Positions 2,227 to 64,000 of a stretch of 64,000 nucleotides of DNA are shown one piece after another. The notes beneath the pieces were generated by a model. That model was not told the origin of the DNA and did not search any database. It worked only from the letters and a program-made list of their open reading frames with translations. The position numbers were made by a program, and so were the translations under genes. How positions within the stretch are numbered: the first letter of the stretch is position 1; the number at the start of each line of letters is the position of its first letter. The stretch lies in NCBI GenBank assembly GCA_905178155.1, contig CAJINV010000019.1, positions 1,100,913 through 1,164,912 of the forward strand, read 5' to 3'. This DNA is from Amoebophrya sp. A120 (Eukaryota; Protista; Dinoflagellata).

Positions 2227-5200
2227 TCACCGTCGCCGATCGTAGTCCGGGCGGCTGTAGCCCCTGCCGGTGTTTCTGGCGGACTGGTCCACATCGTTAT
2301 TCCCCAGATCCATGTCCGCGGATCCCGCGCTGGCGCTGCCCTGCCCGCGCGCGTGGCCACTGCCGCTGCTGGGGCTGCCGGAAAAGTCCTCCGGCCGGCT
2401 GCGGTTCCCCCCGCCACCGACCTGCTGGCCGGGGAGGTTGGCGCGGCCCCGCCGCCCGGGGGCGGAGGCTTGGCTGCTGTGCTGCTGGTTGCCCGGTATC
2501 AACTGCAAAAGTGTCTGGGTCTGGAAGAATGCCAGACTTGTCATGCAGGTTTTCCATGACCCACGAGCTCTGGCATGAAGGACATAGCATGACAGATTCT
2601 GTGAGAGTTCTATCATGCCTATCCTGCATGAGAATCTGCCTCTCGATTAGGTTAAAAATGGACAGCTTTTGGTAATTATGCAACACAGATTTTTACATCA
2701 TTCAGATTTAGCATGACAAGTTGTTTTGTTCCAGACCCAGACATTTTTACGTTTGATATCCGGGCTGCTGTGGCGACTCGGCTGTCCACCCTGCTGGTCG
2801 TGGCTGCTGCTCTGCATGCCCATCGTGTTGGCGAACCGAAACCCGGAACTGCGGTCCAGGCCGCCCGACCGTTGCTGCTGGTAGCCCGAATACATCTGGT
2901 AGCCGGAACCCCGGGCGGAGCCCATGCCGGAGGAGGCCATGCTGTTCTCGCCCATGCCGGGCGAGAATTCCTATCATTTGTAAAAACGTCCCCACACCAG
3001 AGTCAAGATGGGAAACCTGCTACACAAATCAGCCAGCTTTGGTCGTTTGGCATGACAAATTTGTCCTCGTAGTGTGATCCTGTTTAGGTAGTTCAGCGGC
3101 ATCACAGATCTAGTATATCATGCTGATTATATATAGCGTCACAAAATCCAAAACACGACTAGAAAATGCCTCTCATGGCGCTCCGCGTGACAAACTTTTT
3201 TGGCATGCAGATCTACATGACAACTCTGGGGTGGGGACATTTTTACTCAAGATAATTCCGGCCGCACGTTCAGGTTGTCGTACCGGTAATTCACATCGTC
3301 CGCATTGTCGTCTACCATCGCTGTAGTTGTTGGTGTATCATTCATTCGATGTACTTTTGCATCTTCACGCACCACTTGCATCAGAAACGCGCACTCCACT
3401 GCGCCAAGCGCACGTTGACAAAGGAGCAAATAAACGCAAAGAACTTAATATCGCAAGATGTAGATGAAAGCGCATTGTTCTTGTAAAAATGTCAATCGAG
3501 TAAGTACACGAACATCAAAAATCTGCGTTGTACTACGTAAGTACACGGCTTCCAGAAGATGAAGTCAAGTATGCAATTATATACCTGATGTTCCGAATTG
3601 CTGCATATTCTGCGCTCGCTTTTTCCTTTGCTCGTCTTCGTCCATTTGGTGGGTAAAGTCCTGCCCGAACATGACGGGGGTCTGCTGATTTCTGAATTCT
3701 TCCTGCTTCAGTTCCTCCTGGAGGTCCTTTTCTTGCTTGCCCAGTCGGCTTGTGTCCGGCTTAAATTTCTTCCGGGCCGGGTTGCCGAAATCGTCGTTCC
3801 ACTGGTCATCGGCGATGGCCTGCTTCTTTTGCTTGTTAATAGTCGCGTGCCCTCGTACCATCATCTCCGTATCGCAGACAATGTCGAATTCGTTGGTACC
3901 AATGTTCGGCAACTGCCCGAGAATAATGTTCTCGGAAACGCCCTTGCAGTGGTCGACCTGGAAGTTTGTTTCAAAATCAAACCAATTGCATCAATTCATT
4001 TCATGACAAAAATTCCTTCCACGGTTCCACCATACTACTTCATTCAGCCTGTCGATCTACCTCACATAATAAAGTCTACTTTTCGATACCAAAATTTCGT
4101 TTCGTCGTGTAAAGAGAAGTACGTAGTACAAAGCTGTGGTTGTACACGACGTGATTCTTGTAATGTATACATTTCATAGTAGCCTAGTTGAAAATATCAG
4201 TGAAAGAAGATTTTTCTACCTGTCCAAACATGGCCGCTTCCATCAACATTTCCACGGTTTCTTCAAACGAGCACTTCATGAGCGGGCCGTGGTCCGCCCG
4301 GTTCACGCCGTGTCGACTGATGGCCATCAGGTGCCCGCGGTTTGACATGGTGTCACACAGCACCGCCAAGTGCCGGTAGTTCACGTAGGCGCCGTCGAAG
4401 GAAATGACCGCCTTCACTTCGTCGTGTAGCTTCTTTCGCACCGCTTCGACGCCTGAGGTGTTGAGGAGGGTTCATTCTTATGTGCTGGACGCAGAATAAT
4501 TGTAAATTGATAAAGCCTTTTCTTTTGTACCGAACATACGTTGGATTGTTCTTCCACGTTGTATTTCCAGAACTGGAAATACCCCTTCCTTTCGTCACGT
4601 GAGAAGAAGATACATGCGCGCCAGATGTAGTGAAGAGGCGTGCACAGAGGCTGCTGGCATTCTTGATGTACACTTTCCTTGTAGAAGATGAAAAGTTGCT
4701 TGTTCTATAAAAAGTAAGTAGCAGTTGTACCTAAAACTTGCATGATCTCCACAACGTCATTGCTGGTGGTTCTCCTGGCGTCGATCTGTTCGATCTGCAG
4801 GATTTCCTCCAAATTGCACCCCTCCGTGTCAAGCAGCCACTCCTTTTCCGCTCGGTCCCTCCGCGGGAACTCGCCCGTGGTTTCGTCGTACTTCACGACG
4901 TTCTCTTCCCGCATGAACACCTTGCGAATGCCGTGGACCCCCTTCAGCACCATATCCTTCAAAATGTCCCGCTCTATGTTCTTCAGGAACCGGCAGTCCT
5001 TATCCTCATCCTCCTCCGCAGCCTGCTGCAGGTCGTCAAAATCGTCCCCCGCGTTTTGCTCCTTCACGATACGGAGGCGCAGGACCAGTTCGTCCGCGTT
5101 GTCGTCGGTAAAAATGCAGTTCAAGTCGCCCATAAAGTCGTTGATGATGCGCTCGTATGAACTGCAAAAGTATCGCACTCGTAGTATTGCAATACAAATC

Positions 5201-8200
5201 AGCTCAGCATGACAAATGGAATCTGTCATGCTCACTTAGGTTGAACAAGAAACTTGTCTTGCATGACTGCGATTAGTACGAGTACGATGCTTTTGCACAG
5301 GATAGCTCGCCGACCTCGCGCATCGAGAGTTTCTTATCCGTCATCACCTTGTTGTCCAGCTGGATGCGGAGCACCCAGGGAGAAAGCCGGTCCCGGTTGT
5401 CTTCTTCGTCGGGGAGCTCGTAGTACTCGCCCACCCATTCGCGATCCTCGGGCACAATGGTTTGGTCGGGCTCAGGGTCGTAAAAGATCTGTAGTGCGAG
5501 AACAAGTAGAGGAAATGCGAGCGGTCTCTTTTTAAAAACGTATCAAAACAAAAATCTGTTTCGAATCCACCCCAAAAAGTAGATCTCTATTTTCTACAGT
5601 TTAGCTGGCCCTCTATCACAAAGGAAGCGCAAGGGACAGATGCAGATCTTGGTCGCATCTTCGTCCGCCATTTACGTCACAAAATCCAAATCACTCGCAC
5701 GGAAATATATATCAAACGGTCAAGAAGTGTTGTACTATGAAATTGCATCGATAGATTGCATCTGCTTCTGCTGTACTAAATGAACAGAACTATCTATCCA
5801 GGAAAAAAACTGTGTTAGTATATTGAAAACTAAAATCCCAAAGGGAAGATATAACTTTCTATGGCTAACAGCATCACAAATTTGCTGTACATGACAGAGA
5901 AAACCCGTCATGCGTGACCTGTAAGGGAAAACACACATGAAAAGAGGACGTCATGGCTGTCTGGCATGACAGGTGTAACTCTGTTGCATGTCCTGCATCA
6001 CAGAGTTACACTTACACGGTTTTTTTCTTGCATACTATCTACAAATTTTATACCTGTGAAAAACTGGTGATTTTCTCGAGAGTGGTGTGTTCGATATGCG
6101 CCTGGACATTTTTCGCCGCCTGTTTGGATTTGGACACTTCGGGGACTAAATAACAGGTCAGCGAGGGGGTTTTCACGGTCTTCGCCACGTTGATAATCTC
6201 CTTCAACCGCGGCACGCCAAGGGTAACGTTCTTGGACCCAACCTGTTGAGAAATATTTCAGTATCATTGAAAATTGTATTAGAATAGTCAGGTGGAACGA
6301 CAGCAGCCTGCACCACGACGGGGGTGCACTCGGTCGGGGGCGACGAGCCACGACGGTGACATATTATCATTCTTGAACGCGCCTACTGCTACTTACTTCT
6401 TGAGAACATTTGTCCAACACCAGCATGAGCATCGTCAAAACAACTTAAAATTTTTCCTGCAGGGGTAGAACCAATGAGGCAAGAAAAACCAAAAGTAAAC
6501 ATCCACTAAATACCCCGGCAAAGTGGAAGGTGTTTAGTGTCATCTGTGTGGCCGGTTCTCCGACGGACTGCGCAGCGATGGTCCCGACCATCTCGCCCGC
6601 TTGCGCCAGCGACCGTTCGAATTTGTCCTTGATTTCCCCGAGGAGCCAGTCCAGGGACCGTTTTGTCAGCTTGTCCTGCTCGAGCACGCGTCGACTGTTT
6701 AACCGTGTGCGCAGGTGGGCGTTAAGCACGATCATACTGTTGTTTAAAGTCTCCAGACCGAGCTCGTCCGACTCGTCCAACCCCTTAATGGTCTGGAGGG
6801 AGTCCATCAGGGCATTCACCTTGTTGATGATCTGCACCGGCGTGTAGTACTCCAGATCGCCTGCTTCCGTTCTCAGATCTTGCTCAAAGATCATCTGCGA
6901 TGTCTTCACCAGTCGGTCGATCGGAACCGGCAAGTGCTGCTTCGCCTCGCCATCCGGATAGATCTCCTGGCAGAGTTTGCGCTTGTAGTTCTTCAGCCGA
7001 TCGTACTCCTCGTCCATAATTTTTCGGTCCGCGGTGCGCCGCCCCTCCTGCAGCTCCTTGAGCCAGAGGCTGTTGTCGTCGCCGAGCAGCCAGTTCTTGC
7101 CGTAGTCGGGGGATTATCAAATGTAAAAATGTCCGGGTCTGGAAGATTCTGACACTTGTCATGCACGTTTTGCATGAGCCATGATGTCTGTGATGCATAC
7201 CCTAGCAATACAGATTTTTTGAGGGCTTCTTGATGCCTATTCCGCATGACAAATGTCTTCTCAGCGTAGAAAAAATTGCATTCCCTTTGCTAGTACTCAT
7301 GCAATACAGATTTTCTTGGAATCCAAATGTAGCACCACAAGTTGCATTCTTCCAGACCCAGACATTTTTGCATTTGATAGAGATTCGTGGTTGTTGCGCA
7401 GCTTGTCGTCCACCTGTTTGTGGGACCACTTGATCAGATCCAAATCCTGGTCCTCAATGTAGACCGCGTCCATGCCGTCCTCCCCGTACAAAAACTGCAC
7501 AATGTCCTCATTGTCGTTCCGGACGGTGCCGTCGTATCGCACCTTCAGCGTTTCCATGGACTTCACCAGCCGGCGCTGAATGTACCCGGTTTCGGAGGTC
7601 TTCACCGCCGTGTCGATCACTCCCTCGCGACCACCCATCGCGTGAAAGTAAAGTTCCTCGGGCGTCAATCCGGCGAGGTAACTGTTCTCGACGAAGCCCC
7701 GGGACTCCGGCCCGTAGTCGTCTTTCGCAAAGTGCGGCAGCGTTCGGTCGCGGAAGCCGTTGGCGATCCGCTTCCCTTCGACGTTCTGCTGATATCCTGT
7801 GCACAAGTATCGCACTCGTACTAATTGCAATTATGCATGACAAATCGTGTCCTTAAGGTGAAACAGCATTACAAATTGAATTTCTCATGCTGAGGGAATT
7901 TGTAATGCATTTATACGAGTACGATACTTTTGCAGTTCATAGCTGACCCACGCAGGCAATAATCTGGGCGACGTTAATGTTCGAACCCTTGGAGCCGCAC
8001 TATCGAGTGCAAAAATGTCTGGGTCTGGAAGGGTTGGAACTTGTGATGCAAACTTTGGACTCTAAAAAAATCTGTATTGCATGACCAGGAAGAGGAGCCA
8101 CATTTGTGCTACGCGAGGAGGGCATTTGTCATCCGGAAATGGCATCAGGAAGCTTTCCAAAAATCTGTGATGCTGGGTCATGCATTACAAGCATCATGGG

Positions 8201-11200
8201 TCATGCCAGACAAGCATGACAAGCCTTCTATTCTTCCAGACCCACACATTTTTGCATTTGATACGCACGTCACCATCGCAATAATGTTATTCCGCTCATC
8301 CAGGGAGTCGGAACCTGTGAAGATGTGTTGGGCAAAGCGTCAGATGATGAAGGAAGAATTGAATATTTTTGTCGATCGCAGTAGTTCCCCTCCTTGCACA
8401 GGTGGCATCTTCTTCGTGAGGAAGTAGGGAAGAAGTAGAGCGACGTCTTCAACTTTTATTATTGGCGCGGTTCTTTCAACATTGAATTCATTAGCTTCAG
8501 CGTTCCGTAATGTTCACGGTACAACTGCATCTGCTCTGTATTCAGAACTTGCAACGAGCAGCACCGTGCGGCTCCTTCGATACACCGGCGGCACTACTTC
8601 GGTACAACTACTTCTGCATGCAAGCAGGAATAATTCTAGTAATTGCGACAAAAACCATAAACACGAAGAGACACCAGCATCACTTAGCTACAGAAAAATT
8701 TCTCTATTATACCGATTCGCCCCGCCTCCTCGCGCGCACTGTTCAGGGACTGATTCACGGCGTGCTCGAAGGATTGGTGCATGGTTTTTCCTGGCTGCGT
8801 GTCCAACTCTCCGCGCTGGGCCTTGGCCACCGTTTCGGCCACCTTGTCCTTCGCGCCCCGCAGCGTCTCGGCCACCCGCTGCATCGTCTCGTCGTTGGCC
8901 ACAATATCCGCGCACCCGCACGTAAACCCGTGGTGCAGCAGCCAGGTGTTTACCATCTTTTGGATGTAAGAAATCAAAATCTTACACGCCTCCGGACCGT
9001 GGTCGAGCCAGGTCAAGTGCAAAACACCCCCGGATTGGGTACCTGAGTCGATGAGGAGAGGTTCTTTCAGATGGAAAATCAAAGAACGCAGTGAGTTGTG
9101 TGATTCCTTTTCCTGCACAGAGCTGCATGAAATTTCGATCGCGACCGGTAGAAATAGCACTTCTCCGCATGACGTCTTCCATTTTTTTGCGATAGGTCAT
9201 GATAAAATGAAATGTCACTAATCTTTTGCTTTTCGAAATCTATCAATTATGCACATTAATCCGCAGGACCAGAATAATTACCAACGATTTTTTTGTCCAC
9301 CCGTCCGCAGACGACTTGACCTATCACACAGAAAAAAACTGGCAGGTCATATTTGTAATGCAGAAATAAATAGACAAGAAAACTTGTATTGCATAGCATG
9401 CTACAACGAGATCGCCCATGACCTGTGTATTTATTTTTGCATTACAAATGTGCCCTGCCAGCTTTTTTCTGTGGGATATGACCGTCGCGGATCACGCACT
9501 TGTGATCGGACTTCGAAAACATGGCGTTGTATCAAAGTGAAAAATCCCCCCACCCCATAGTCAAACTAGAAATTTGTGATGCAGATCTGTGGCCACAAAT
9601 CAGCTTTGTCATGCTAGAAGGGAAAAGATGCGGACTGTAGTGATGGCTGGCCTGGGAAAGCCTTGCATCTTCAGCATGACAAGGGGCAGCTGGAAGTGGG
9701 AAACAGCATGACAACTTGCCTGCAAAGGAGGCCACAGCTGCGTCTCTTGGCCTTCTAGCATTACAAGTCGATTTGTGTACTCAAATACAGCACCACAAAT
9801 TTCAATTTCGATGTGGGGAGGGGGAATTTTTCCTTTTGATACGTTGTCACCCTTGTTTTTCGCCGCCACGCCGTTGTCTTTCGTGACGTTCAGTCGTGGC
9901 TTTAACAGCAGCGAGAAAATCTGCTTCCCGGACCACAGCGGCTCCGGCTTCAGGATGCAGGGGATGGGCACCTGGCCGTTCCAGTCCGGCAGCGTGAGGC
10001 AGAGCGAAAACACCGCGTCCCGGGTCAACAGCGTGTCGCGCTTGGTAAACTTGGACACGGCGAGGCAGGCATCCTGCACGATGCCCATCACCGGCTTGTT
10101 GCCCTGGGGAGACACCTATCAAGTGCAAATATGTCTGACTCTGGAAATTTGTGATGCATGTGAGTGAACAGAAAGCGCGCTGTAATGCACCGCCAAGCAT
10201 GACAGATTTTCTCGTGGCCCTGTGTTGCGTATTCCGCATGAGAAACATGGTTTTTGCATGACAGACAAGAGGAGGTCTTCGCGGCCACGCAATACAGAGT
10301 TCTGAGTCATGCCAAACTAGCATGAGAAGTCTCGCAATCTTCCAGACCCAGACATATTTGCAATGCATAAGACCATTTGCTTGGGCACCAGCATGATGTG
10401 CTTGATTTCCGCGCGGGTCTCGTGACTCTGCGCCAGGTGCAGGTTCATCTCGTCGCCGTCGAAGTCCGCGTTATAGGGGCTGGTCGCAGACAAATTGAGG
10501 CGGAAGGTGCTGTAGGGCAAAATCTTCGCCCGGTGCCCCATCATACTCATCTTGTGCAGCGAGGGCTGCCGGTTGAACACCACAAAGTCGTTGTCCACCA
10601 TGTGCCGCTCCACCTTGTCGCCGATTTGCAGAAACCCGGCGGCCTCCTGGTCGTTCTCGGGGACGTGCGTATACCGCAGATCGATCGTGCTCCCGTCCGG
10701 CTTCTTGATGAACTTCGCCCCCGGCCACTCCGTGGGCCCGTTGCGGACCGCTTTAAGGAGCTTCTTGAAGGTGATGGAGGTCACCCGCTCGGGGAAGGTC
10801 AGGTTGAAGGCGATGGACCGCGGCACGCCGACCTGATCAATGTCCAACATGGGATCCCCACCAATGACCGTTCGCGCCGAGAAGTCCACGCGCTTGCCCA
10901 TCAAGTGGCCGCGCAACCGGCCCTCCTTGCCCTTGAGCCGCTCGCGGATGGACTTGATCGGCTTGCGGGACTTGGTGGTCGCCTGGGGGAGGGACTGGAT
11001 GTTGTTGTCGCACAGAGTGTAGATGTGGTACTGCAGCAGGTTCGCGAACTCCTGACACACGTGCTTGCCGCTGCCCATCTGCAGCTGCTGCTTCAGCGTC
11101 AGGTTGGCCTTCAGCAGGTCCAGAAGCTTGGCCGTCAGGTCGTCCTCACTGCGGTCGGTGCCGAAGGAAACTGTGGGTCGCACCGGGGGCGGTGGGACGG

Positions 11201-13064
11201 GAAAGACGGTCAAAATCAGCCACGCGGGGTCTGACTTGCCCGGAATGAAACCCATGGCCAGCTTGTCGCGGTCCGAAATGTTGCTCAGAATGCGGTACGC
11301 CTCCTCCCCAGTCAGTTGCCCTGTTTTGGTCGTTTTTCAAATTTTACTAGGATGTTGGCCATGATATTGAAGCACCACGGATTCATTATTAGTTGTGCCG
11401 CGGTACACAGGACGGTACTGGAGCACTAAACGAAAAATGAAATGATCTGTATCTACTTCCATAAAAATACGTTTTCTATCCTTGTTTTCCCCCTCGTCTG
11501 TCTCGTCCTCTGGGAAAACGACGAACACTTGCGCCCCCTCCTGCACTATGGATTGCAAAAATGTCTGGGTCTGGAAGGTTGTAACTTGTGATGCTATCTT
11601 CGGATTCCAAAAAAATCTGTAATGCATGACCAGCAAGAGGCTCAGTTTTTGCCACGGCGAGAGGGCATTTCTCATGCGTAATTAGCATTAAGAAGCTTTC
11701 AAAAAATCTGTGATGCTAGAACCAGCATCACAGACCTCACGGATCATGCAAAATGTGCATGACAAGCCCCGACTCTTCCAGACCCAGACATTTTTGCATT
11801 TGATATGCACGTATTTTGGTTGCGCATAGCCGCACCCGGAGGTCGCACTCGCCATTACTTCCAGGTCTTATGGATGTGTCAGAGTTGAAATCGACAAAGT
11901 TGAAACAATTTGCCATGCATAAAATGAATGCCAATTAGACCTGCAGTTTGTAGTCGGTGCATGACAAATTTTCCTGGTCCTGGAAGCGAGTCTGTCATGC
12001 GGTTTAGGGCAAAAGAGCTGCCTTCTGTCATGCTAGTCAGCAGTTCAACTGTTGACCCTTACCAGGACTATTATCTGCCTCCCTTGCGTCCTCTGCAATA
12101 GAGTCACATTTTGTATCGCATTTTATGCATTACAAGTTATTTCAACTTTGTCGATTTCAACTCTGACACATCCATAGGTCTTCCCCGTTTTGTATTGCCT
12201 GCTGATCCGTCACGAACGGACACCGCTTCTTACTTCGGCAAAGAGCGCATACCTGCAGGTGGATGGTTTTAAATTATAATCAAATTTCAAATTTGTGCTT
12301 TGTGGAGGAACGCACTACTGCTGAGCAAGGTGGCAAATAACGCAAAACGTGAGTCGCTGCATGTAGTCCCGGCGTGGTCGCCCTTCCAAGGCTATGTAGC
12401 GCCAGTACAAGCTCCAGGTCGTCTCGGACCAAGTCGGATCGAAGTCGAACAAACAACACAAAATCTAATATCAAAAGAAAAGCAAATACGTGCGCCAGTC
12501 GCTGCTTCATGTTCTTGGACTGTTGCGCCTTCTGGATGCCCAAGTCGTCGTAGGGCGTGAGTAAACGACTGCAGTAGTAACAAACGCAGCGCAGGCAACT
12601 GAGTGTCGTTTTTAAAAATCCCCAGGAAAACATGGGCTGCGCGAGCACGATGTGGCCAAAGTGCCCGGGACAGTTGTCCATGTTCATGCTGCAGGTGTCG
12701 CAGGGGGTCTGGTAGTCGATGGGGCCCATGCGCGGGTCGTTGAGCCCGCCGTAGGTGGGGAGCCCGCCCTCATAGGTGTTGGGGTTCACCACTTCACACA
12801 CCGACTGCTGGGTAATTTCGTCCGGGGACAGCACGGTGAACTATCCTGTGCAAAAGTATCGCACTCGTAGGAATCGCAGTTATGCATCACAAATCTCCAC
12901 TCCAAGGCAAAACAGCATGACAAATTCCATTTGTCATGCTGAGCTAATTTGTATTGCAATTACTACTAGTACGATAATTTTGCAGATCATATGAACCGCA
13001 CCGCGGCGATCTTCTTGTAGGGCGCCCGGGACTTGGGCACGTCCAGGTCGCTCACCGTCGTCAT
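2227..13064 (-). CDS. RPB1: DNA-directed RNA polymerase II largest subunit (multi-exon: ~9 GT-AG introns plus 12 exonic TAT..ATA element introns)
   Basis: Motifs [37 protein letters not shown], catalytic [56 protein letters not shown]. The frame is continuous after removing the elements. The 3' end (stop at 2227) is less certain. Confidence 0.96.
2497..2758. mobile_element. Introner family A (TIR TATcaaatgcaaaaatgtctgggtctggaa)
   Basis: Flanks cccgg/tccgg; interrupts RPB1 C-terminal exon; frame restored. Confidence 0.9.
2972..3254. mobile_element. Introner family D (TIR TATcctgagtaaaaacgtacccacaccagagt)
   Basis: TSD attcc/attcc; excision gives RPEFSPG. Confidence 0.9.
5156..5304. mobile_element. 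Introner family C (~150 bp; TIR TAT..tgcaaaagtatcgcactcgta)
   Basis: TSD gctcg/gctcg; excision gives EVGERIIND. Confidence 0.93.
5795..6034. mobile_element. Family F element nested in a GT-AG intron
   Basis: TSD ctatc/ctatc; partly decayed TIR; lies within RPB1 intron ~5489-6053. Confidence 0.8.
7115..7379. mobile_element. Introner family A
   Basis: Flanks gggat/gagat; excision gives NHESPDYGK. Confidence 0.92.
7793..7941. mobile_element. Introner family C
   Basis: TSD gctga/gctga; excision restores conserved [13 protein letters not shown]. Confidence 0.95.
8001..8263. mobile_element. Introner family A
   Basis: TSD cgcac/cgcac; excision restores [12 protein letters not shown]. Confidence 0.95.
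9322..9478. mobile_element. Introner family F (TATcacacagaaaaaa; long hairpin)
   Basis: TSD tgacc/tgacc; ~50 bp imperfect TIR; excision gives IRDGQVVCG. Confidence 0.92.
9530..9841. mobile_element. Introner family E (TIR TATcaaagtgaaaaatccccccaccccata)
   Basis: TSD cgttg/cgttg; excision gives GDNAMFSK. Confidence 0.92.
10117..10369. mobile_element. Introner family A
   Basis: Flanks acacc/agacc; excision restores [16 protein letters not shown]. Confidence 0.94.
11547..11805. mobile_element. Introner family A
   Basis: TSD tgcac/tgcac; excision gives QPKYVQEG. Confidence 0.93.
11869..12176. mobile_element. Introner family B (TIR TATggatgtgtcagagttgaaatcgacaaagttgaaa)
   Basis: Perfect ~37 bp TIR; TSD ggtct/ggtct; excision gives GEDLEVM. 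Confidence 0.94.
12842..12991. mobile_element. Introner family C
   Basis: TSD tgaac/tgaac; excision restores [11 protein letters not shown]. Confidence 0.95.
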
Positions 13065-30227: not shown

Positions 30228-30260
30228 ATACAAATTCTCTTTCTTAAGCGATTCCCCCTA

Positions 30261-38772: not shown

Positions 38773-38789
38773 GGTTGCGATTCGACTCT

Positions 38790-49538: not shown

Positions 49539-52500
49539 TCAAATCTCCAGGAAATAGTCCTTCGGTGCCCACACCCTTAACGACCGGTCGTCGCTAATCG
49601 AGAAGAGGTAATTATCGTCCATTCTATCGGACAGTATCCTGGTCGACGTCCTATCTTCGTGTTCCTCCCCACCACTAACCTCCGGCCTGGTCACCCATAG
49701 ACAACTAGAAACCGAGGATGCGTGTCCCTTCAGTGTGCAGAGCAGCGTCCCCAGTTCCTTGTGCCACACACAAATCACACTCGTTTCGGACCCGATGATG
49801 ACAAACTCTTCCCGTTTCCCCCCGAAGGTCGGACGGAGAATATATCAAAGTGAAAAAAGCCCCCACCCCATATCGAAAACGAAATTTGTGATGCTGTGTT
49901 TCAGTACACAAATCACATTTGTATTGCAGTAGAGCACTGCACGCAGCTCGCAAGCCTAGGTAGGGACCTTTTGGTGTAGGCGCTTAGCATGGTAGACGGC
50001 TGCCCTGTAGGCCCTACAGCATCACAAATCGCCTGCATAACGTGCCGGGCAGCCTGGACTTGCCTTCTTGCACGACAAGCGCGATTTGTGGCCACAAATC
50101 TGCATCACAAATTTTCAGATGGATGCGCTTTCAATATGGGGAGGGGGGATTTTTCCTCACGATAGAATAAACCGAGACTGGGTGTGCCCGTAGTACTCCT
50201 GCTTCTTCTCAATCTTCAGAGAGAATTTTTTCTGCTGTTTGATGTTCTTCGTGTGTTCCCCGGCTTGCCTGTTTCTACTCCAATTATTCCCTCTTGTAGT
50301 ACCGGAAGATGATGTTGAAAGCGCGTTAGTCACTGTGCCCGCAAAATCGTTGTACGGCTCATGATGATGATCCTGTTCGTCATTACTACCGAAGGGCTGA
50401 AATCCACTTGACCCGCCTGAGAAGTCGCCTACAACTTGCATGTCCTGCAATACCACGTCCAGCTGCCAAAGTCTGACCAGCCCCGAAGGCCCCCTCTCAC
50501 TATTCCCCAGCGCGGCGCGACTGGCGAGCAGTGCGTTCGTCAGGTTTGACGCGCGGATGCTGGTCACGGGTTCCTTCTCGGGAATGGTGGCCAACTCCAA
50601 AGGCGTCGCATCGGAAAGTTTCGGCGGCAACACGGCAAAGGAGGTCGGGTTACCGGACCGCGTGCGGGAACCCGAGGGGGCCAAAAACGGCGGCGAAAGC
50701 GAACCCATTTGCTGGGACATAATGTATCCTGAGTAAAAACGTACCCACACCAGAGTCAGGGTGGGGATTTTGCAACACAAACCTAGGAGTTTTAGGAGTC
50801 ACGCATGACAAGTTTCAGTCCGTAAGGTAGTGCAAGTTAGCAAGGAAAGCCGCATCACAAATCGACCTTCTGATCCTGTTTACAGCATTACAAGTTCCCA
50901 AACACGATTGAAAATGCCTGTCATGGGGTTGCGCATCACAAATGTTCCTGTCATGGCAAATCTGCATGACAACTCTGGGGTGGGGACGTTTTTACACAGG
51001 ATATAATGTCCTGTTTGTTCTTCGCCTTTTTCGTACCGTAGACCTTGATTCCCTTTTCCACGGACAAAACGAACAGCAGCGTCTTATTGTAGTTGAAGCA
51101 CAAATCCTGAATCGGCGACGTCTGAATCGTCCACAGGGGCTGGGTATTGATTGCAAATATGTCTGGGTCTGGAAACTTGTAATGCTAAACGTGGATAATA
51201 GACGCACTGCAATACGCAGCTATGCATGACAAATTTTTTGGCTGCCATGTCTTACGTATTCCGCATGGCAAACTGCGTTTTTGCATGACAGGTGAGAGGG
51301 CCTGTTCGTGCCTATGCAACACAGATTCTTGAGTCATGCCAAATAAGCATGACAAACTTCTTGCACTCTTCCAGACCCAGACATACTTGCAGTTTATACT
51401 GGGTTTTCAAAAGAAATTGCGGGGTGGTGCTAGCAGATCCCGCTGTTGTTTGATGGACCTTTTGTTCCACGAATTGGATCTTCGCCGCGCGAATTCGGTA
51501 CGGGCTGAACGAAGACGATTGCTCGAAGGTTGCATAAACAAATTCCGTCTCGCTCATCCAGTCGACGTGCAGATAGGCGGAATTTCGCTCCATCACGAGG
51601 GAGCCCACTTGGTGGATACAGTGGTTGATAGAAGTCCTTTTCTTTTCCGTTTCCCCCGCTGCCGATGTAGTTCCTTCGTAGTTCTCTCCGGATGTATTTT
51701 CCTGCCCAGCCAAACCCAAACCCGTAGTAGTATCTTGCTCATCGAACAGAGTCGGTGTTTTGTACACCACAGGTGTGGCCCCAGCAGATTCCGTCCTTTC
51801 CAAAGCAGCTGAGTCCTTGTTCGTTGCGCTATTCGCGGATGAATTTGATGCTGGATTTGTTCCTGTAGCTGTGGATGTCTTTGCTGAGTCCTGACCACCA
51901 CGAAAATCGACAAAATTTTCCGCGAATTCCTCTTCCGGGAAGGTCCACAGCCACAGCTTCTTCATGCTACACCCCAAAAGCATCTTGCCGTCGGTGGAGA
52001 AAGCCAGACAGGTGACTGCTTTTTCCGCCTCCACGTCGTCGTCCTCCACGTCTGGCTCCGGCCTGGGCGTCGGAGAACTTGGGTTCTTGTCCTTCCTCTG
52101 CGGGGCCGCATCGATCCAGTGGGAAAGCTCCACCATGTTCTCTCCGTCGTCATGATGAGGAGGGGCGAAATTACTATTTGCCTGCGCTACGGGAGGATGT
52201 TGTGGTCCGGCGCCCCCCGGAACAAGGTTAGTATTCACAACGTTAGTACTGGACGACGAAAACAGCGAACGCGCGTTCGTATTGGTGTTCGCAGCTGCAC
52301 CTCCTGCCGTGTGTCCGACCGAATTTTCCAAAACCAGCCCGCCTTGTAGCTGCAAAAATGTCTGGGTCTGGAAACTTGTAATGCTTGGTTGGGAATAGTG
52401 AATGCTCTGTAATGCACAGCCTTGCATGAGAAAGGTTTGCGCTGCTCAGTGTTGCGCTTTCCGCATGACAAACTGCGTTTTTGCATGACAGGCAAGAGGC

Positions 52501-55500
52501 CCTTTTCCTGCTCATGCATCACAGATTTAAGAGTCATGCCAGACAAGCATGACAAACGTGCATTCTTCCTGACCCAGACATATTTGCAACCCATACGCCG
52601 GCGCTGCTACCAAACTGCAAGTTGTTCGAAGGAGCATTATTGTAGTTACCACCCGCCGTGGTCGTGACCCCACCACCGCCCGTCATTCCACCGGCGCGAA
52701 AAACCGCCTTGCGTTCGAGAACTGGGACTTTGACGTTTCTCCTAGATGTACTACTTCTTCGCTGGTGGTTGTAAAGACGCACAGCGGCCGCCGCGTCAGG
52801 AGCGCGGGCAAATTGAAGTTCCGAAGTCGTATTCCAATCCTTTATCGCACGCTTCACAATTCTACTTTTCCGGTCTGCAGCACGGGAGTTGTAGAAACTT
52901 TTCAGACGCCGCGGACCACGTGTCTCAAATGCAAAAGTGTCTGGGTCTAGAAGATTGCAACTTGTCATGCTGTTTTTCGACTCTAAAAAAATTTGTATTG
53001 CATGACCAGCAAGAGGGGGGCAATTTGTGCTACACGGACCACAGGGCATTTCTCATGCGGAAGGTGCATCAGGAAGGGTTCTAAAAATCTGTAATGCTAG
53101 GGCATACATCACAGACAATCGTGGGTCATGAGAAATATGCATGACAAATCATGCATTCTTCCAGACCCAGATACTTTTGCATTTGATAACGTGCTCGACC
53201 ACCCAACATGGTGTACGCGTTCATCTTCGACGGCGAGACGGAATTGTGATAGTATGCAATAAAAAAACTGTGTAAGTGTAACTCTGTCTTGCAGATGTTG
53301 CAATACAGTTACACTTGTCAAGCCGGCTATGCATCAGAGGCTATTTTAGTACGTGTTTTAGCGTACCAACTACGCATGACAAGTTTTCTGTCATGCAAAA
53401 CAAATCTGTGATGCTGTTCCTGCAAAAACGTTACACTTACACAGTTTTTTTCTTGCATAAATAAATTGCGCTGTCCATTTCCCTTCCCAATTCTGCGTGC
53501 GACGTGTCGTAGTGGTTGTCATAATTAAACGTGTTGAATAAAGAGCTGTCTTCGTAGTTCTCTCCTTCACCAGAACCACCAGCAGCAGCACGCCCGTCCG
53601 GTATAATTTCAGCAGAACCTGTTGAACAATGTCCTGCTCGTGGCCCCAACGCGGCGGAATGATCAACGGTCGCATCAAACCCAATCGTGTAGATGCACAC
53701 CCGGCGGTCTCTCCCTGCTGTGGCGACGATCGTTTTCATCATCTTCTTTATGGAGAGAAAAAGGTTTGTCACAGTCACTAATTTGCAGGCTTTGCATTAC
53801 AAATTTTCTTAGCATCACAAATTTTCCTTGTATTGCAGAAAACACTACGGAAATCCGTAATAAAGTTTGGCTGTGATGCATTTTTACGCATGACAAGCAA
53901 TTTTGTATTGCAAAAATGCGCATGAGTGACCGTGACGAACTTTTTTTGTTTGATATTCTTTGGGCTTGTTGCACTTGCACCAGAAGACGCACCAGTGGTG
54001 AAAACATGCAACGCCGGATTGGACACAGCAAGGCTCCAAAGCTCGTCGCTGTGGCTCACGAGCACTTCCCTTTGCAATAACGGGACCGGGAGCGGTGCGC
54101 ATGTGTAGTTCTCCATCAGGCTTCTCGTTCCGCGGGGGCCGGTAATATGGTTCTTGTTTGACGTCATCATCGGCCGGGGGATTGACATCACGCTAGATGG
54201 TGCACCAGAAATAGTTGCACCAGAATTCAGCCCCAAGACGCTCGCCACGTCATTCTGAAAAGGGGAAACCAGCTCTTGGTACTTCAAAGCCTGGTGACAG
54301 ATTTCCACGAAGCGGTTGGGCGGTGTCATGATGTTTGAAGGTAAGAGTTTCAGAATGGTGTCATATAAGTTTTTCCGTGTGTAGTGCAAACTGAATTTCT
54401 GCGGATGATCTCCTTCTCCTTTACTAGTAGCGTTTCTAGTGCGCCCTCGCGCTTCTCCTTGTGCTTTTCCCCGTCCACCAGCTCGCCGCAAACTTCTAAA
54501 CTGCTTGCTTTGTTTGAAGTCATCCACTAACAGAAACGAGGAGAGCTCGTGCACCCGTTTCTGCATTTTTTCGGAGTTGACTATCCCATTTTCCGGTAAG
54601 AGCATGAACTGCAGGAGTTGGATGGCTGTGATGATATCGTCGAAAAAAAGAAGCTCCAAGTAGTACTGTTCGTAGATGAGAAAGATGATTTTCTCCTTGT
54701 TCTTCTCCCACGTGTAGAATTCAGATAAGCTCGTGGGTTGCCGGGGTGGACGAAGAGGATCGTGTACGAACGACGAGGACCCACTGCTGGCACCACCAGC
54801 CGCAAAGTTTTCATCAAAAACCGTGTCCAGCAGCTCAAGCGCACCCTCGTAGTCGATTTTCGATGTCCTCGCAGGTTCCTGTTGATCTTCTATATTCTTT
54901 CCATCCACGACCTCTTCCGCATCTAGTCGCAATTTCTGCTTCAGCTGCTTGCACCAGGGGCTTTCCAGGCTCAACCCCGTCTCCTTTTCCAATGTCTGTA
55001 GAGATTGTGCGAGATATCCTGAGTAAAAACGCACCCACACCAGAGTCAGGATGGGGATTTTGCAGCACAAACCTAGGAGCTTTGTGAGTCACGCATCACA
55101 AGTTGCGCTATGCAGTGTAGTGCAGGTTAGCAAGTGCAGCCGCGTCACAGATTCATCTGCTCATCCTGTTCATAGCATCACAAATTCCAAAACACGATTG
55201 GAAATGGCTCTCATGGGGATGCGCATTACAAGTCTTCCTGTCTTTGCAAATCTGCATTACAACTCTGGTGTGGGTACGTTTTTACTCAGGATACGAGATT
55301 TAGAGACTTCAATGTCTGCATGATCAACAGCAGCACCTCGCTTGTCTGCAGGTTATTTCTGCTACCGGGAATTATCGCTTTGTTACCGAGGAGATTTTTT
55401 GAAGAAGACTCTATGCCACGAGGACCGACAATGAGAGTGTCTGCGTTTTTGTCCAGCATTTCCACGTCTATTGCAGACGCATCAATTGCACCAGCCACGG

Positions 55501-55907
55501 GCGCGGCCCCACCACCGCTACCCCCTCCGCCCTTCTTACCCCCGTGTTGACCACCTCCGCCGCCCTTGACCCGCTGTTTTTTCTGTTATCAAATGTAAAA
55601 ATGTCTGGGTCTGGAAGAGTGCATGTTTGTCATGCTAGATCTGGATCATGCAACAATCTGTGTTGCATGAGTACCAAAAGCCGTGCATTTTTAACCAAGG
55701 TGACAAGGAGTTTCTCATGCAGGATAGGCATGAGAGAGATCGCAGAGAATCTGTCATACTAGGTCCTGCATTCCTCACCTCATGGGTCATGGAAAAGCTG
55801 CATGACAAATCGCGCATTCTTCCAGACCCAGACATTTTTGCATTTGATATCTGTTGCGGCCCACCCATTTTCGGATCCAATGTTGAGGACTCAGCGCGTT
55901 TGCTCAT
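49539..55907 (-). CDS. WDR26: WD40 protein with LisH/CTLH, WDR26/GID7-like
   Basis: LisH QTLKSLNLAQSLQTLEKETG, CTLH IFLIYEQYYLELL, PPNRF..QALKYQ, WD repeats HSDELW, ATAGRD, YYGHTQSRFILRPTFGG, LKGHASSV. Confidence 0.8.
49843..50164. mobile_element. Introner family E
   Basis: TSD gaata/gaata; restores QSRFILRPTFGG. Confidence 0.93.
50725..51003. mobile_element. Introner family D
   Basis: TSD taatg/taatg; near-identical to 27095-27373 in opposite orientation. Confidence 0.92.
51145..51398. mobile_element. Introner family A
   Basis: TSD ctggg/ctggg. Confidence 0.9.
52345..52595. mobile_element. Introner family A (TGT left terminus)
   Basis: Flanks cgcct/cgccg; excision gives SAGGLVLE. Confidence 0.88.
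52923..53188. mobile_element. Introner family A (TCT left terminus)
   Basis: TSD acgtg/acgtg; frame restored. Confidence 0.9.
53253..53459. mobile_element. Introner family F
   Basis: TIR tatgcaa(t/g)aaaaaaactgtgtaagtgtaac; flanks gatag/aataa; frame restored. Confidence 0.88.
53779..53925. mobile_element. Aged ~150-bp introner
   Basis: Flanks gtcac/gtgac; dense octamer motifs; excision joins two ORFs in frame (FVTVTVTNLF). Confidence 0.7.
55015..55293. mobile_element. Introner family D
   Basis: TSD cgaga/cgaga; restores LisH motif. Confidence 0.93.
55587..55849. mobile_element. Introner family A
   Basis: TSD tctgt/tctgt; excision gives GPQQKKQR. Confidence 0.92.
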
Positions 55908-57357: not shown

Positions 57358-59152
57358 TCACGTAAGCGTAGATGAGGACCGCCGTATCATGGAAGTGTCC
57401 ATGCCACCTGTGGTAGTTTTTTATGCAACAATTTGACCAGCATGCTGAGTGCTGCGAGATAGCCATCGGATTCCGGCACTTCGCCTTTCATCTTTGTTTG
57501 CAAACTAAGAACACACGACTTAAACTTACCAAGAACTATCAATGGAAGATAAATTATACCAGCCCCAACCGGCCCGTCGTCTTTACTTCGTTCCCTATCT
57601 TTTTTTCTCTTTCCCCCACCGCTACTCGACGCGTCGCGCGGGGTCCACTCTTTCAGCGGCGATTTTCCAACGGAGAAAAGCCGTACATCCTGCTGCTCGA
57701 GTTGCTTGCTAGACGCCCCTATGCATTGCAAATATGTCTGGGTCTGGAAGAATGCAAGATTTGTCATGCTTGTTTCGCATGACTGTTAACGCTGTGATGC
57801 TTAGGCGCAAAAAGATCCTCTTGCCTGTCATGCAAAAATGGACCCTACCATGCGGAATACGCAACACACAGGAGCGCGAAAACTTGTCATGCTTGGTCAC
57901 CTATATCAGTGAGCTCATTACTCACATAGTTGCATCACAAGTTTCCGGACCCAGACATATTTGCATTTGATAGCCCCTCGCGAGTACATCATCTGCTCCT
58001 TAGACGGTCGCCAGTCGGGAGAGGAGGCTGGACCTAGTCAAGTATAAAAATGGCGTTGTTTTTTCCTCATGATGAAAAGAAAGTGACGAGTTCGAATCAC
58101 GACAAACAAAAATCCAATGGCGCGAAGCACCAGCATGAGAGGACAAAGAGCTTATTTATACCACTGAAGTCCTGGTAGCTATTTGATCTTCTCCGCACCC
58201 ATCGGGTTGCGTCTGCCTCGTAGCCAAACGGCCTTTCTATTGCATTATCAAGTGCAAATATGTCTGGGTCTGGAAGGTTCTGAGACTTGTCATGCACGGT
58301 TTGCATGAACCATGATGTCCGTGATGCATGCCCTAGCATCACAGGTTTTTTGCGGGATTCTTCATGCCCATTCCGCATGACAAATGCCCTCCCCGCGTAG
58401 CAAAAATTAGAATCCTTTTGCTGCTCATGCAACACAAATTGTTTAGACATCCACATGCAGCATCACAAGTTGCATTCTTCAAGACCCAAACATATTTGCA
58501 ATCCATATGCATCCACTTGATGCAACGGTCTTCCCACCACATCCTCTTTCGTCCCTGGTTGAGCGATATGCATTGCAAATATCCCTGGATGTCTGGAAGG
58601 TTCCACACTTGTCATGCCGTCTTTGGATTCTAAAAAAATCTGTATTGCTATGACCAGCAAGAGGAGCCCAGCTTGTGCTCCGCGGAGAGGGTATTTGTCA
58701 TGCGGAATAGGCACTTCAGGAAGCCTTCCAAAATAAATCTGTGATGCTAAGTCATGCACTACAGGCACCACGCGTCATGTAAGATATGCATTCTGCAAAC
58801 CTGGCAATGCAATCTTCCAGACCCAGACGTATTTGCATTTGATAAGCGACGATGGCGTTAGCCGCGGCTGTGTTCGCGCTAGATCCGCATCCCATATGCA
58901 TTGCAAATATGTCTTGGTCTGGAAACTTGTGATGCTGAGAGGCGTAGCGTCTGGAGGCCACAAGTGCTGGCCTAGCATGACAAATTTCTGAGCTTCTAGG
59001 TGTTGCCTATCCTGCATGACAAACAGCGTTTCGGCATGACAGAAAAATGTGGCTCTTGGGTAACGTGCATGACAGATTCAAGAGTCATGCCACGCAAGCA
59101 TGACAAACATGCATTCTTCCAGACCCAGACATTTTTGCATTTGATATCCCAT
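57358..59152 (-). CDS. Small hypothetical protein with MGCGSS dual-acylation-type N-terminus
   Basis: After excising four elements and two GT-AG introns the frame reads MGCGSSANTAAANAIVAQPGTKEDVVGRPLHQVDAIERPF..SRGASSKQLEQ..STLT*. Confidence 0.6.
57720..57972. mobile_element. Introner family A
   Basis: TSD gcccc/gcccc. Confidence 0.91.
58246..58507. mobile_element. Introner family A
   Basis: TSD tgcat/tgcat. Confidence 0.91.
58567..58844. mobile_element. Introner family A (variant left TIR)
   Basis: TSD agcga/agcga. Confidence 0.9.
58895..59146. mobile_element. Introner family A at the start codon
   Basis: TSD tccca/tccca overlapping ATG GGA on the minus strand. Confidence 0.91.
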
Positions 59153-61775: not shown

Positions 61776-61884
61776 GGCCAATGCTGCACTTCTGATGTAC
61801 TACGATTCATCCAGTACTACGATTCATCTACGGCCAATGCTGCACGGCCGATGCTTGCTGTACTACGATTCATCCGGTACTACT
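61776..61884. repeat. Short interleaved tandem repeats
   Basis: gtactacgattcatc x3 (plus a partial copy) and cggccaatgctgcac x2 (plus a variant). Confidence 0.7.
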
Positions 61885-62366: not shown

Positions 62367-64000
62367 CTAATTCCCCCTCGCATCTGCCGCCGTGTTGCAG
62401 TTGCTATACCCCAATTTTTCCAGCTCTTTCTGCAACCCTGCAATGTGCTGGCAGCCCACCACAGCCAGCACTCGACCGTCGAAGCCTACCAAAGTACTAG
62501 CCATCGATTCTTCGCGCCGGTGGAATATGATGTCCGACGTGTTTTTCGGCTCCGTTTTCAGAGCCACCTCGCGCAAAATGAACGCCAGCCGGTGGGTCGG
62601 CACGATGTCGTACGACAGTTCCGCGGTTTTGTTTTCTTGCAGTTGTCGGGCCTGGTGCTTCTGCGCGGAGGAAACGGGTGCAGAATTGGAATTACCACTA
62701 GACCCCCCGCCGCCGAGCTGTACCAATCGGTCTAACTCGGTATCGGACAAATCGCAGACGATCCGCAAGTAGTGCGCCAAAGACTGTTGCTTCAGGAGCT
62801 CACACGCCTGCAACGCGAGCTGATATCAAATGTAAAAATGTCTGGGTCTGGAAGGTTGCCAGGTTTGTCATGCATATTTTACATGACTCAGGATGTCTGT
62901 AATGCATGATCTGGCATCACATATTTTTAGAGGCCTTCCTGATGCCTATCCCGCATGACAAATGGCCTCCCCGCGTAGCACAAACTGGGCTCCTATTGCT
63001 GGTCATGCAATACAGATTTTTTAGAGTGCAAAGTTAGCATCACAAGTTCCAACCTTCCAGACCCAGACATTTTTGCATTTGATAGCTGGCGGTTGGAGTC
63101 AATGTGGAGGATCCGGCAACTCGGGCCGGCGAGGTACTTGGGCATGGCGACCGGAAAAGAATTGCAGATGGAGAGAACCTTTTTAAAATGACGTGGAAGT
63201 TATGCAAGAACTCTTGTGAATCATGCTACCATGTAATAAATGTTGCTCCGAAAAAAAGTAGAAAAACACGCTGATGAAACATCCATATCCACTAAAGTAA
63301 AGAATCACCAGAAGATAAGTACGCTCTTATCAGTCTTCTCCGTTTTCGCCTTCCTTGCAATCTCGTTCAAGAAATGCAGCCCGAAGTCCTCACGCAGCGC
63401 CTCGCGGCGGAAGGCGTCCGCTAAGCCCTTCCACGTTTCCCGACCGTCCAAAGGCGCTTCCAGCCCAACGATGTGGGGCTGCAGACGCCGGAATACCTTT
63501 TTTTCAGTTGGTATTCGGTGCGGGGTGAATTACTAGTTACCCGACTGCAAGGCGTAGAGCGTCACACAACGTGGTGGTCTTTATTGTTTCTCATGCTCTA
63601 CTGCGGGCTTTTATGATCTCATGACATGATCAAGAACAGATGGAAACACGATAGGAGCTTAGTGTTATTCACGGATCGTCTTAATGAAAAAGTACCTTCG
63701 CCATGTTGATCGCGTCGTACTTCGAGTAGTGCAGTTGTCCTAGGATGTAAATGTGCGAATTCTTCGCCACCATTGGGTTGTTTAAACACCACTCTGCCAA
63801 GTCCTCGTTTGTCGTATCGCGCAAAACGCGGTACAAATCCAAGCCGTACGCCATCGCTTTGTCCAAGTAATCCTTCGGCTCCTCGACTTTCGCACCACTA
63901 CTTATGGGGGTGTCAGAATCGAAATCGTCAAACTTGAAATAGTTTGCCATACATAAATAAATGCAACGCAAAAATTGTCTCCATTGCAGAGGACGCAAGG
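62367..64000 (-). CDS. TraB-domain (TRABD-like) protein, 5' part beyond window
   Basis: C-terminal IIFHRREESMASTL..VLAVVGCQHIAGLQKEL resembles the TraB family ER/VVG-H motif. Upstream exons lie at 63.1-63.9 kb. Confidence 0.6.
62824..63084. mobile_element. Introner family A
   Basis: Flanks gctga/gctgg; excision gives NRQLALQ. Confidence 0.92.
63903..64000. mobile_element. Family B element, truncated by the window edge
   Basis: Begins tatgggggtgtcagaatcgaaatcgtcaaacttgaaa, like 11869 and 41519. Confidence 0.8.

Follow-up and report, generated by a model that had tools for sequence, protein, structure and literature searches.

Introner-type DNA transposons in the exons of Amoebophrya and their probable GT-AG-independent removal from pre-mRNA

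Introduction

The closest described systems are the introners of Amoebophrya sp. A120, which have TAT + 7 nt + AAA ends and 5-bp repeats and are supported as non-canonical introns by RNA-seq reads that span them (passages of PMC7789003). A transposase was not found in A120 according to these passages, which argue against general mobilization by one. A120 family 38 is filed in the supplement of PMC12130899 as "Ginger; 5-bp TSD, TA/TA termini"; it is about 808 bp long and has ORFs similar to LTR integrase regions. IS3EU/GingerRoot elements have TA..TA termini, TIRs and no base-specific target preference; they encode an integrase-like transposase, their TSD is usually 6 bp, and they are not described as introns in the relevant passages of PMC10045372 and PMC6839031. 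Euglenid nonconventional introns have TIR-paired ends, TSD-like junction repeats and non-canonical borders, and coexist with spliceosomal introns (passages of PMC11282704). MITE-derived introns with TIR and TSD are also found in Fritillaria, Polarella, Micromonas, and Aureococcus, where fixed splice dinucleotides are kept or co-opted and the spliceosome is used (passages of PMC11282704 and PMC7789003).

The elements that we analyzed in a 64,000-nt stretch (the window) are almost certainly A120-type introners. The host is Amoebophrya, the ends consist of TAT, 7 variable nt and at least three A, the 5-bp border repeats fall within the 3-5 nt described for A120, and the elements form repeated families that are mostly non-GT-AG. 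Their end profile, TAT(C/G)nnnnGnAAAA, is the A120 motif, and their size classes match those of A120 families (about 149, 160, 210, 252-262, 278, 305, and 320 bp; PMC7789003, PMC12130899), which argues for family identity. As described there, they lack coding capacity and are interspersed with GT-AG introns in co-oriented genes; no difference in kind is seen. The initial annotation therefore overstated the novelty of the phenomenon, since the end motif, the 5-bp repeats and RNA-seq support were already in print for A120 (PMC7789003). It had also noted that TAT termini differ from the usual CAC or TG ends of Transib and integrase-type elements; TA ends do have precedents in the TA..TA termini of IS3EU/GingerRoot and the TA/TA termini of family 38. 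Compared by description, family 38 shares with the window elements TA ends, a 5-bp duplication, TIRs and intron formation, but the latter are 149-453 bp long and without such ORFs. From the text of the A120 papers, in the parts consulted and figures aside, four features appear to be missing: an internal motif common to the families and spaced at 31-33 bp, empty sites at orthologous positions of a close relative, a phase bias and repeat mismatches concentrated at the edges.

Elements in the window

A search for TIRs with direct repeats found 55 strict elements; 10 shuffles yielded 0-1 apiece. With 8 variants added by hand, the catalogue holds 63 whole elements, bounded by TAT…ATA inverted ends and flanked by direct repeats of 5 bp, which occupy 16,232 bp (25.4%), or about a quarter of the window, as first estimated. 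An element of the ~307-bp family truncated by the window end (63903-64000) and a decayed candidate (30328-30580; repeat 4/5) fall outside this count, so that the earlier figure of about 68 was right in kind, the number being nearer 65. The size classes given earlier are borne out: 27 copies are 251-278 bp long, 8 about 280 bp, 5 about 150 bp and several 304-325 bp, and there are singletons. The most similar pair is 96.8% identical. The two repeat copies agree at 5/5 bases in 47 elements, 4/5 in 14, 3/5 in one and 1/5 in one, and mismatches between them are biased toward the edges. Rfam had no matches on the window, nor did the TIR pattern have any in viral_contigs.

The elements were said to interrupt coding exons, which is the case for 58 of the 63. 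The other five comprise 5795-6034 (240 bp), within the RPB1 GT-AG intron 5489-6053; 16701-16909 (209 bp), probably within a GT-AG intron; 33298-33549 (252 bp), just within another; 38790-39054 (265 bp), 5' of the first ATG in a probable 5' UTR; and 29168-29377 (210 bp), an old intergenic copy whose direct repeat is gone. The first was placed against a homologue and the other four by eye.

Outside RPB1, exonic elements lie at 15397-15712 (316 bp, ends diverged) and 16098-16376 (279 bp), both with the frame judged by eye, and at 17088-17239 (152 bp) and 17361-17623 (263 bp), both with 4/5 repeats. They are followed by 21793-22072 (280 bp), 22126-22378 (253 bp), 22418-22671 (254 bp), 24369-24630 (262 bp), 25239-25503 (265 bp), and 26066-26327 (262 bp). 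The element at 22729-23181 (453 bp) is a copy of the ~280-bp family with a nested poly(A)-tailed insert, whose 17-bp duplication lies over the internal motif. The frame is uncertain for exonic elements at 27095-27373 (279 bp), 27464-27725 (262 bp, one end TAG), 27769-28002 (234 bp, repeat 4/5), 57720-57972 (253 bp), 58246-58507 (262 bp), 58567-58844 (278 bp), and 58895-59146 (252 bp). A protein kinase gene is interrupted in exons at 31249-31459 (211 bp) and 32811-33114 (304 bp), and further exonic copies are found at 33601-33869 (269 bp, one diverged end), 33921-34245 (325 bp), 41147-41453 (307 bp, repeat 4/5), 41519-41824 (306 bp), 43188-43439 (252 bp), 43472-43713 (242 bp, repeat 4/5), and 62824-63084 (261 bp, repeat 4/5). 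A CWC25-like gene has six, at 35291-35542 (252 bp), 35610-35802 (193 bp, repeat 4/5), 37428-37678 (251 bp), 37735-38043 (309 bp), 38099-38407 (309 bp), and 38454-38735 (282 bp). A WD40 gene has them at 49843-50164 (322 bp), 50725-51003 (279 bp), 51145-51398 (254 bp), 52923-53188 (266 bp, one end TCT), 53253-53459 (207 bp, repeat 3/5), 53749-53955 (207 bp), 55015-55293 (279 bp), and 55587-55849 (263 bp). Removal of 52345-52595 (251 bp, one end degenerate) plus 5 bp links two long open frames.

The DDX18/HAS1 helicase gene has exonic elements at 46000-46261 (262 bp), where the junction peptide is collinear with the homologues P0123 and P0124, and at 46316-46467 (152 bp, repeat 4/5), and in its N-terminal exon at 47752-48002 (251 bp) and 48036-48356 (321 bp). 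At full length, the HAS1 exon best matches P0123 (98%) and a named protein of Amoebophrya sp. A25 (94%), other single-domain matches being at most 76%; judged by the A25 match, the host genes of the window are Amoebophrya-like.

RPB1 and its orthologous locus

The gene for the largest subunit of RNA polymerase II (RPB1; 2227-13064, minus strand) has 9 GT-AG introns and, as initially annotated, 12 exonic elements whose deletion, each with one 5-bp copy, restores the frame: the resulting ORF has 1,767 aa and is 74% identical to the homologue P0001. The insertions were said to fall at conserved motifs. This is true of 7793-7941 (149 bp), within the near-invariant IACVGQQNVE (mean identity at the site 0.90), 10117-10369 (253 bp, repeat 4/5; 0.70), and 8001-8263 (263 bp; 0.67), but not of 2497-2758 (262 bp, repeat 4/5) and 2972-3254 (283 bp) in the low-complexity tail, or of 11869-12176 (308 bp) in a variable loop. 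The remaining exonic elements are 5156-5304 (149 bp), opposite in orientation to 7793 and 12842; 7115-7379 (265 bp, repeat 4/5); 9322-9478 (157 bp); 9530-9841 (312 bp); 11547-11805 (259 bp); and 12842-12991 (150 bp) in the first exon.

The 13 window elements in RPB1, including the intronic one at 5795, were compared with L042, the orthologous locus from a second assembly. Eleven are missing from L042, which carries 8 of its own. At nine sites, among them 2497, 5156, 7115, 7793, and 8001, L042 has a clean empty site with a single 5-mer; two elements are replaced by different ones 3 nt (11547) or 2 nt (11869) away, and two are common to both assemblies (2972, 280/283 identical; 5795, 238/240). 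Insertion is recent and lineage-specific. Over 1,767 codons, the two RPB1 copies have 128 synonymous and 5 non-synonymous differences (pN/pS 0.011), which indicates that the gene is under strong purifying selection despite 19 lineage-specific insertions.

These results bear on the possibility that we are dealing with pseudogenes, or that splicing at GT-AG sites close to the elements alters the proteins slightly. Four of the 58 exonic elements can indeed be read as GT-AG introns, and 15% of the canonical introns of A120 carry such repeats (passages of PMC7789003). However, a pN/pS of 0.011 marks a functional host gene, as had been supposed, the other 54 have no GT-AG register within the repeat, and the core RPB1 sites are free of indels in homologues. 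We consider this explanation very improbable.

The empty sites also bear on excision from DNA in transcribing nuclei, in the manner of ciliate IESs, with one 5-bp copy left behind and no RNA processing. Such excision would recreate exactly the L042 empty-site allele, and the signals of the elements, being strand-symmetric, resemble DNA-binding sites in their 31-33 bp motif spacing and lack of G·U bias (see below). Against it, the elements persist and differ between the two assemblies as fixed insertions. Amoebophrya is not known to have a separate germline nucleus, and without one any excision at the DNA level would pass to the offspring and the elements would disappear. Moreover, A120 elements were treated as introns from RNA-seq versus genomic DNA (passages of PMC7789003), a comparison with which stage-specific excision is compatible. 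DNA excision thus appears improbable.

Transposon origin

The elements have TIRs, a TSD of fixed length and empty orthologous sites, as expected of MITEs or non-autonomous TIR DNA transposons. Among 374 related elements listed from the loci, an exact 5-bp repeat is found in 289, a 4-bp repeat in 3 and a 6-bp repeat in none, unlike the usual 6-bp TSD of IS3EU/GingerRoot. With the empty sites of L042, this upholds the proposed MITE-like origin with 5-bp TSD. All six window families with at least three members occur in both orientations. A weak G excess is seen just outside the direct repeat and otherwise no clear target preference; this excess does not explain the bias in insertion phase, and target-site preference was rejected as its cause.

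No autonomous transposase-bearing element was found among the matches listed in at least 133 overlapping loci (734 kb). Those long copies that were inspected (453-2,459 bp) proved to be short elements carrying nested inserts, and two further candidates (8001-12208 of L048 and 8001-9031 of L038) have short elements within them and probably owe their paired ends to chance. The sole long ORF inside an element (363 aa, L067) has no match in Pfam, PHROGs, PDB or Atlas and no relative except itself.

Internal motif and terminal stems

One internal motif, YYTGTVATGC, recurs across unrelated families; its copies often lie 31-33 bp apart and face inward. There are 353 sites in the 63 window elements, compared to 8.6 in shuffles, and all 344 elements from the loci have the motif; 462 of 1,217 intervals between sites measure 31-33 bp, and, apart from the main family, at least two sites are present in 207 of 209 copies. 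One motif across unrelated families is expected if a single transposase binds them all. Outside the elements, exons have no sites and non-coding DNA has 22, which suggests that the motif may have another role.

The ends could also pair in RNA: a terminal stem of at least 12 bp is predicted in 57 of 58 exonic elements (fold z is -6.1 for 7793 and -5.2 for 8001). Selection for an RNA stem was sought among sense-strand TIR mismatches, of which 238 are G·U and 267 A·C (p 0.21), so that G·U is not favored. There is thus no sign of such selection, and folding follows from DNA symmetry alone; structure-guided removal, as originally suggested, is possible but gains no support from this test. The profiles of the 5' and 3' ends resemble each other. 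All four window variants of the terminal triplet are at the 3' end, but the loci have 8 at 5' and 6 at 3', and a requirement for 5' TAT with a free 3' end was rejected.

Removal junction

At RPB1 sites 7793, 8001, and 9322, the junctions left by removal of the element and 5 bp are gapless in 108 of 108 homologues, as expected if one repeat copy goes with the element. We infer that the window elements are very probably removed from RNA in this way. Removal of the element and only 2 nt, which would add one codon and was suggested by the NT-AN dinucleotides of Table S4, was rejected because there is no avoidance of stop codons (4 in 317 copies, 3.4 expected) and no room for one more residue at the core RPB1 sites. 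A sliding junction with both repeat copies under coding constraint was not established, 10 of 15 mismatches being synonymous in the window (p 0.009-0.07) and 18 of 35 in the loci, where 7 of 13 central mismatches are non-synonymous. L042 carries, within an RPB1 exon that is conserved, a copy of 972 bp that encloses a nested insert, so the element ends seem to be enough for removal.

In the cases first checked, sliding the junction through the registers within the 5-bp repeat had not given GT-AG. This holds for 10 of the 12 exonic RPB1 elements and 54 of the 58 exonic elements, the exceptions being 9322, 10117, 22418, and 24369; GC-AG is reachable in one of the 58. With the loci (7 of 259), GT-AG is reached in 11 of 317 copies, about what chance would give (background 4.7%), which supports the proposal that removal is independent of GT-AG. 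Together with free orientation and the symmetry of the ends, this chance level speaks against an ordinary spliceosome, as U2 introns have GT/GC-AG ends with 5'-3' polarity.

A modified U2 spliceosome without U1 dependence, with sites defined by a new subunit or a terminal hairpin, has been proposed instead (PMC7789003). A120 retains nearly all spliceosomal proteins and U2, U4, U5, and U6, while U1 was not detected, according to passages of that paper, and an adapted spliceosome for transposon introns has a precedent in Fritillaria (passages of PMC11282704). Most RPB1 GT-AG donors start with GTAT or GTA, similar to N+TAT. In addition, half of the insertions are in one phase (29/58 in the window, 127/259 in the loci), which for two of the six registers would mean phase-0 introns. 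On the other hand, the ends show no polarity, orientation is free, GT-AG registers are not enriched, and the window elements do not have the preferred end dinucleotides that Fritillaria introns retain. A modified spliceosome is a serious but less likely alternative.

Discussion

Our preferred reading, held with some confidence from the sequence evidence, is that A120-type inverted-repeat DNA transposons leave the pre-mRNA, each together with 5 nt, through an end-guided pathway independent of GT-AG. Elements insert into exons in either orientation with a 5-bp duplication and no clear target preference. They may be spread in trans by one transposase, probably of the integrase fold (Ginger/IS3EU-like), that would bind the internal YYTGTVATGC arrays, 31-33 bp or three helical turns apart, and make cuts, staggered by 5 nt, at the TAT ends. 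In the removal step, pairs of inverted ends would juxtapose the two 5-nt copies, and a symmetric endonuclease and a ligase, rather than the spliceosome, would cut and join inside the repeat. That the removal enzyme is non-spliceosomal is a tentative view, to which we give nearly as much credence as to its opposite. By analogy, removal most likely works as in euglenid nonconventional introns, although those have CAG/CTG near their ends, belong to an unrelated lineage and have demonstrated circular products (passages of PMC11282704). A bolder and rather improbable version is that one integrase-fold transposase, or a domesticated derivative, binds the universal YYTGTVATGC arrays in DNA and both spreads the elements and tags them, while they are being transcribed, for an endonuclease-ligase that works without the spliceosome.

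The removal and mobilization of tens of thousands of signal-less Amoebophrya introns are still called open in passages of PMC7789003 and PMC11282704. RPB1 alleles that differ by 19 insertions are natural controls with and without elements, and a motif common to almost every family is a bait for finding the binding protein. If the bolder version were true, intron identity would be read from a DNA-bound protein and not from RNA signals, and a transposon would come with a second splicing system of its own, at work in tens of thousands of introns. Were there a second pathway for RNA removal, it would account for a genome that tolerates transposons in a large fraction of its coding exons.

Elements and host genes

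The search took TAT…ATA pairs in which 16 or more of 24 positions matched in inverted form and 4 or more of 5 flanking bases matched as a direct repeat. In the window 55 elements passed, against 0-1 in each of ten shuffles, and eight more were added by hand from near-misses. The resulting 63 whole elements span 16,232 bp, or 25.4% of the window; one more is truncated at the window end. The families are those of the initial annotation, which counted at least six and had them cover about a quarter of the window. Direct repeats are perfect in 47 of the 63, and pairs of copies are up to 96.8% identical. The modelled host genes are all on the minus strand, and 58 of the 63 elements are placed within reading frames, which were checked against homologues for RPB1 and HAS1 only and otherwise by eye, about seven being uncertain.

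The gene for RPB1, the RNA polymerase II largest subunit (13064-2227, minus strand), carries nine GT-AG introns and 13 elements, 12 of them exonic and one within a GT-AG intron. That twelve elements interrupt its exons and that their removal restores the frame is borne out by the product, 1,767 aa long and 74% identical to the homologue P0001; the top match in the protein search is at 88% and the second at 67%. The heptad YSPTSPS is characteristic of the RPB1 tail. No such heptads were found in the tail here (2227-3320, minus strand), where G, S and Q are abundant, and P0001 also is without PF05001. The exon of HAS1 (DDX18/HAS1 helicase) is 98% identical to its homologue P0123 and 94% to a named Amoebophrya sp. 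A25 protein. No identical protein turned up in either the RPB1 or the HAS1 search. Six exonic elements lie in a CWC25-like splicing-factor gene (35257-38775, minus strand), whose Pfam match is weak, below the cut-off.

As excerpted, a published account gives A120 introners as 29,850 copies with 5-bp direct repeats and RNA-seq support, whose ends begin with TAT, followed by seven variable bases and at least three A (PMC7789003). The window end profile is identical to this one. Among 39 of the 58 A120 rows of one table, A120 families of the same lengths are filed as 'TIR DNA, Unknown' (PMC12130899). From the published end motif, repeats and family lengths in these excerpts, the system is thus already known (see also parts of PMC11282704 and PMC11453091), and the window elements are A120-type introners on each feature tested.

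Empty sites in a second genome

The commonest 30-bp element end matches at least 136 stretches in metagenome_contigs and none in viral_contigs. The 77 loci listed have one assembly prefix in common. The 133 loci, a set skewed to the main family, contain 374 distinct short elements; the exact flanking repeat is 5 bp in 289 of these, 4 bp in 3 and 6 bp in 0. One locus, L042, carries the orthologous RPB1 from a second assembly. Opposite the 13 window RPB1 elements it has nine empty sites with one 5-mer, two different elements 2-3 nt off, and two elements in common; it also has eight elements that the window RPB1 lacks. Compared along the full 1,767 codons, the two RPB1 genes show 128 synonymous and 5 non-synonymous changes (pN/pS 0.011). 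These results show that the repeat is a target-site duplication, that insertion is recent and lineage-specific and that RPB1 is functional. The proposed DNA-transposon origin with a 5-bp duplication is therefore upheld by the empty sites and the exact 5-bp repeats, and the possibility that the hosts are pseudogenes runs counter to the RPB1 ratio.

The two shared elements (2972-3254 and 5795-6034) are 99% identical against 10.8% divergence at synonymous sites, in two cases only, and the GT-AG introns are clearly more diverged than they are. Selection on the entire element or a homing-like transfer is possible. The elements at 11547 and 11869, and those at 2699 and 2320 of L042, arose by separate insertion and belong to different families; the distances between them are only 3 and 2 nt, a hint of local hot spots.

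The unit probably removed

Deletion of the element plus exactly one 5-bp copy, as first proposed, regains the empty-site allele and is gapless against RPB1 homologues (108 of 108 at 7793, 8001 and 9322; 107 of 108 at 5156 and 10117; 87 of 87 at 12842). Removing the element plus 2 does not avoid stops. We infer that at the window sites element plus 5 is removed from RNA; excision from the DNA is a very unlikely alternative.

The initial annotation also held that, in the cases it checked, sliding the junction yields no GT-AG. This is so for 54 of 58 window copies, but such a register is reachable in four, two of them in RPB1. Among the matches listed, 7 of the 259 copies classed as exonic offer such a register, where the background is 4.7%. 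The classifier made 41 correct calls out of 42 in the window; for the 361 elements of the loci in these matches, it called 35 non-exonic and gave no call for 67. Both orientations occur in all six window families with at least three members, and for the 149-bp family they do so even inside RPB1. The 5' and 3' end profiles are symmetric, and a copy enlarged to 972 bp by a nested insert lies within a conserved exon of L042. Removal probably works most like that of euglenid nonconventional introns. U1 is given as undetected in A120 in the excerpted account (PMC7789003). Removal by a spliceosome working without U1 is somewhat unlikely, and we tentatively favor a non-spliceosomal enzyme over it.

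In 29 of 58 window copies (p 0.024) and 127 of 259 loci copies among the matches listed (p 6e-7), positions 2-4 of the repeat make up one whole codon. Where a repeat has a single mismatch, it lies at an edge position in 31 of 48 cases (p 5e-4, tested post hoc), as would be expected if a match were required at the three central bases. In the window, 13 exonic sites have a single repeat mismatch, among them 2497, 7115, 10117, 15397, 17088 and 35610. Window mismatches show a synonymous excess, replicated only weakly in the loci among the matches listed. The elements show strong folding (z -6.1 and -5.2), but mismatches between their ends on the sense strand are 238 G·U vs 267 A·C, which gives no evidence that an RNA stem is under selection. 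Of the suggested second, structure- or protein-guided removal pathway, independence from GT-AG stands but stem selection is unsupported.

Internal motif and mobilization

Unrelated families have an internal motif in common, YYTGTVATGC. With a profile centered on TGT(C/G/A)ATGC, the 63 elements yield 353 sites vs 8.6 in shuffles, and an inward-facing site lies 28-48 nt from the end in 84 of 126 element ends. Trained on the window only, it matches 344 of 344 loci elements among the matches listed; there, spacings of 31-33 bp account for 462 of 1,217, and at least two sites are present in 207 of the 209 copies beyond the main family. Relative to the transcribed strand the motif shows no bias (888 against 839). 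With its three-turn spacing and its strand symmetry, the motif is consistent with a DNA-binding protein, for which a single transposase serving all families would be the simplest candidate. No prior description of the motif was found in the open literature, for PMC7789003 by terms in the available text, figures S19-S25 lying outside. Elsewhere in the window, strong matches number 22 in 28.9 kb of non-coding DNA, probably decayed copies, and 0 in 18.7 kb of approximate exons. Several GT-AG introns carry motif copies (15760-16700, 30700-30900, 31560-32020, 33240, 42230-42540, 43800-43880 and 45770), and 31940-32000 is 78% like the element at 5795; these probably represent elements in decay, and may be introners that have become canonical.

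Nested inserts occur on the internal TGTCATGC motif at window 22729-23181 (17-bp duplication, poly(A)-tailed), L042 8001-8972 (19-bp, poly(A)-tailed) and metagenome locus L027 3862-4492 (13-bp). The first two are 83% alike across 155 bp, and a retroelement may target introners. An internally repeated sequence of another kind at 29526-30233, 76-83% like an L042 RPB1-intron insert and like metagenome locus L041, is a second mobile family. Short local duplications lie in non-coding DNA at 61790-61880.

The suggested scan for long elements enclosing a transposase found none in the 133 loci among the matches listed, and the excerpts of PMC7789003 report no transposase in A120. A 363-aa ORF of metagenome locus L067 (1514-2602, minus strand), within the nested 2.2-kb insert of a 2,459-bp element copy, is an orphan for which no family, structure or relative was found. 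A120 family 38 is entered as 'Ginger; 5-bp TSD, TA/TA termini', with integrase-like ORFs, in the available part of PMC12130899. IS3EU/GingerRoot elements have TA..TA ends and usually 6-bp duplications, as excerpted (PMC10045372, PMC6839031); because the duplication here is not of 6 bp, the window elements are not placed among them.

Taken together, the most likely account is that these are MITE-like transposons; an integrase-fold enzyme would mobilize them in trans, and an end-guided RNA cut-and-join within the 5-nt repeat would render them harmless. The details noted here make the removal and mobilization of the elements amenable to testing.
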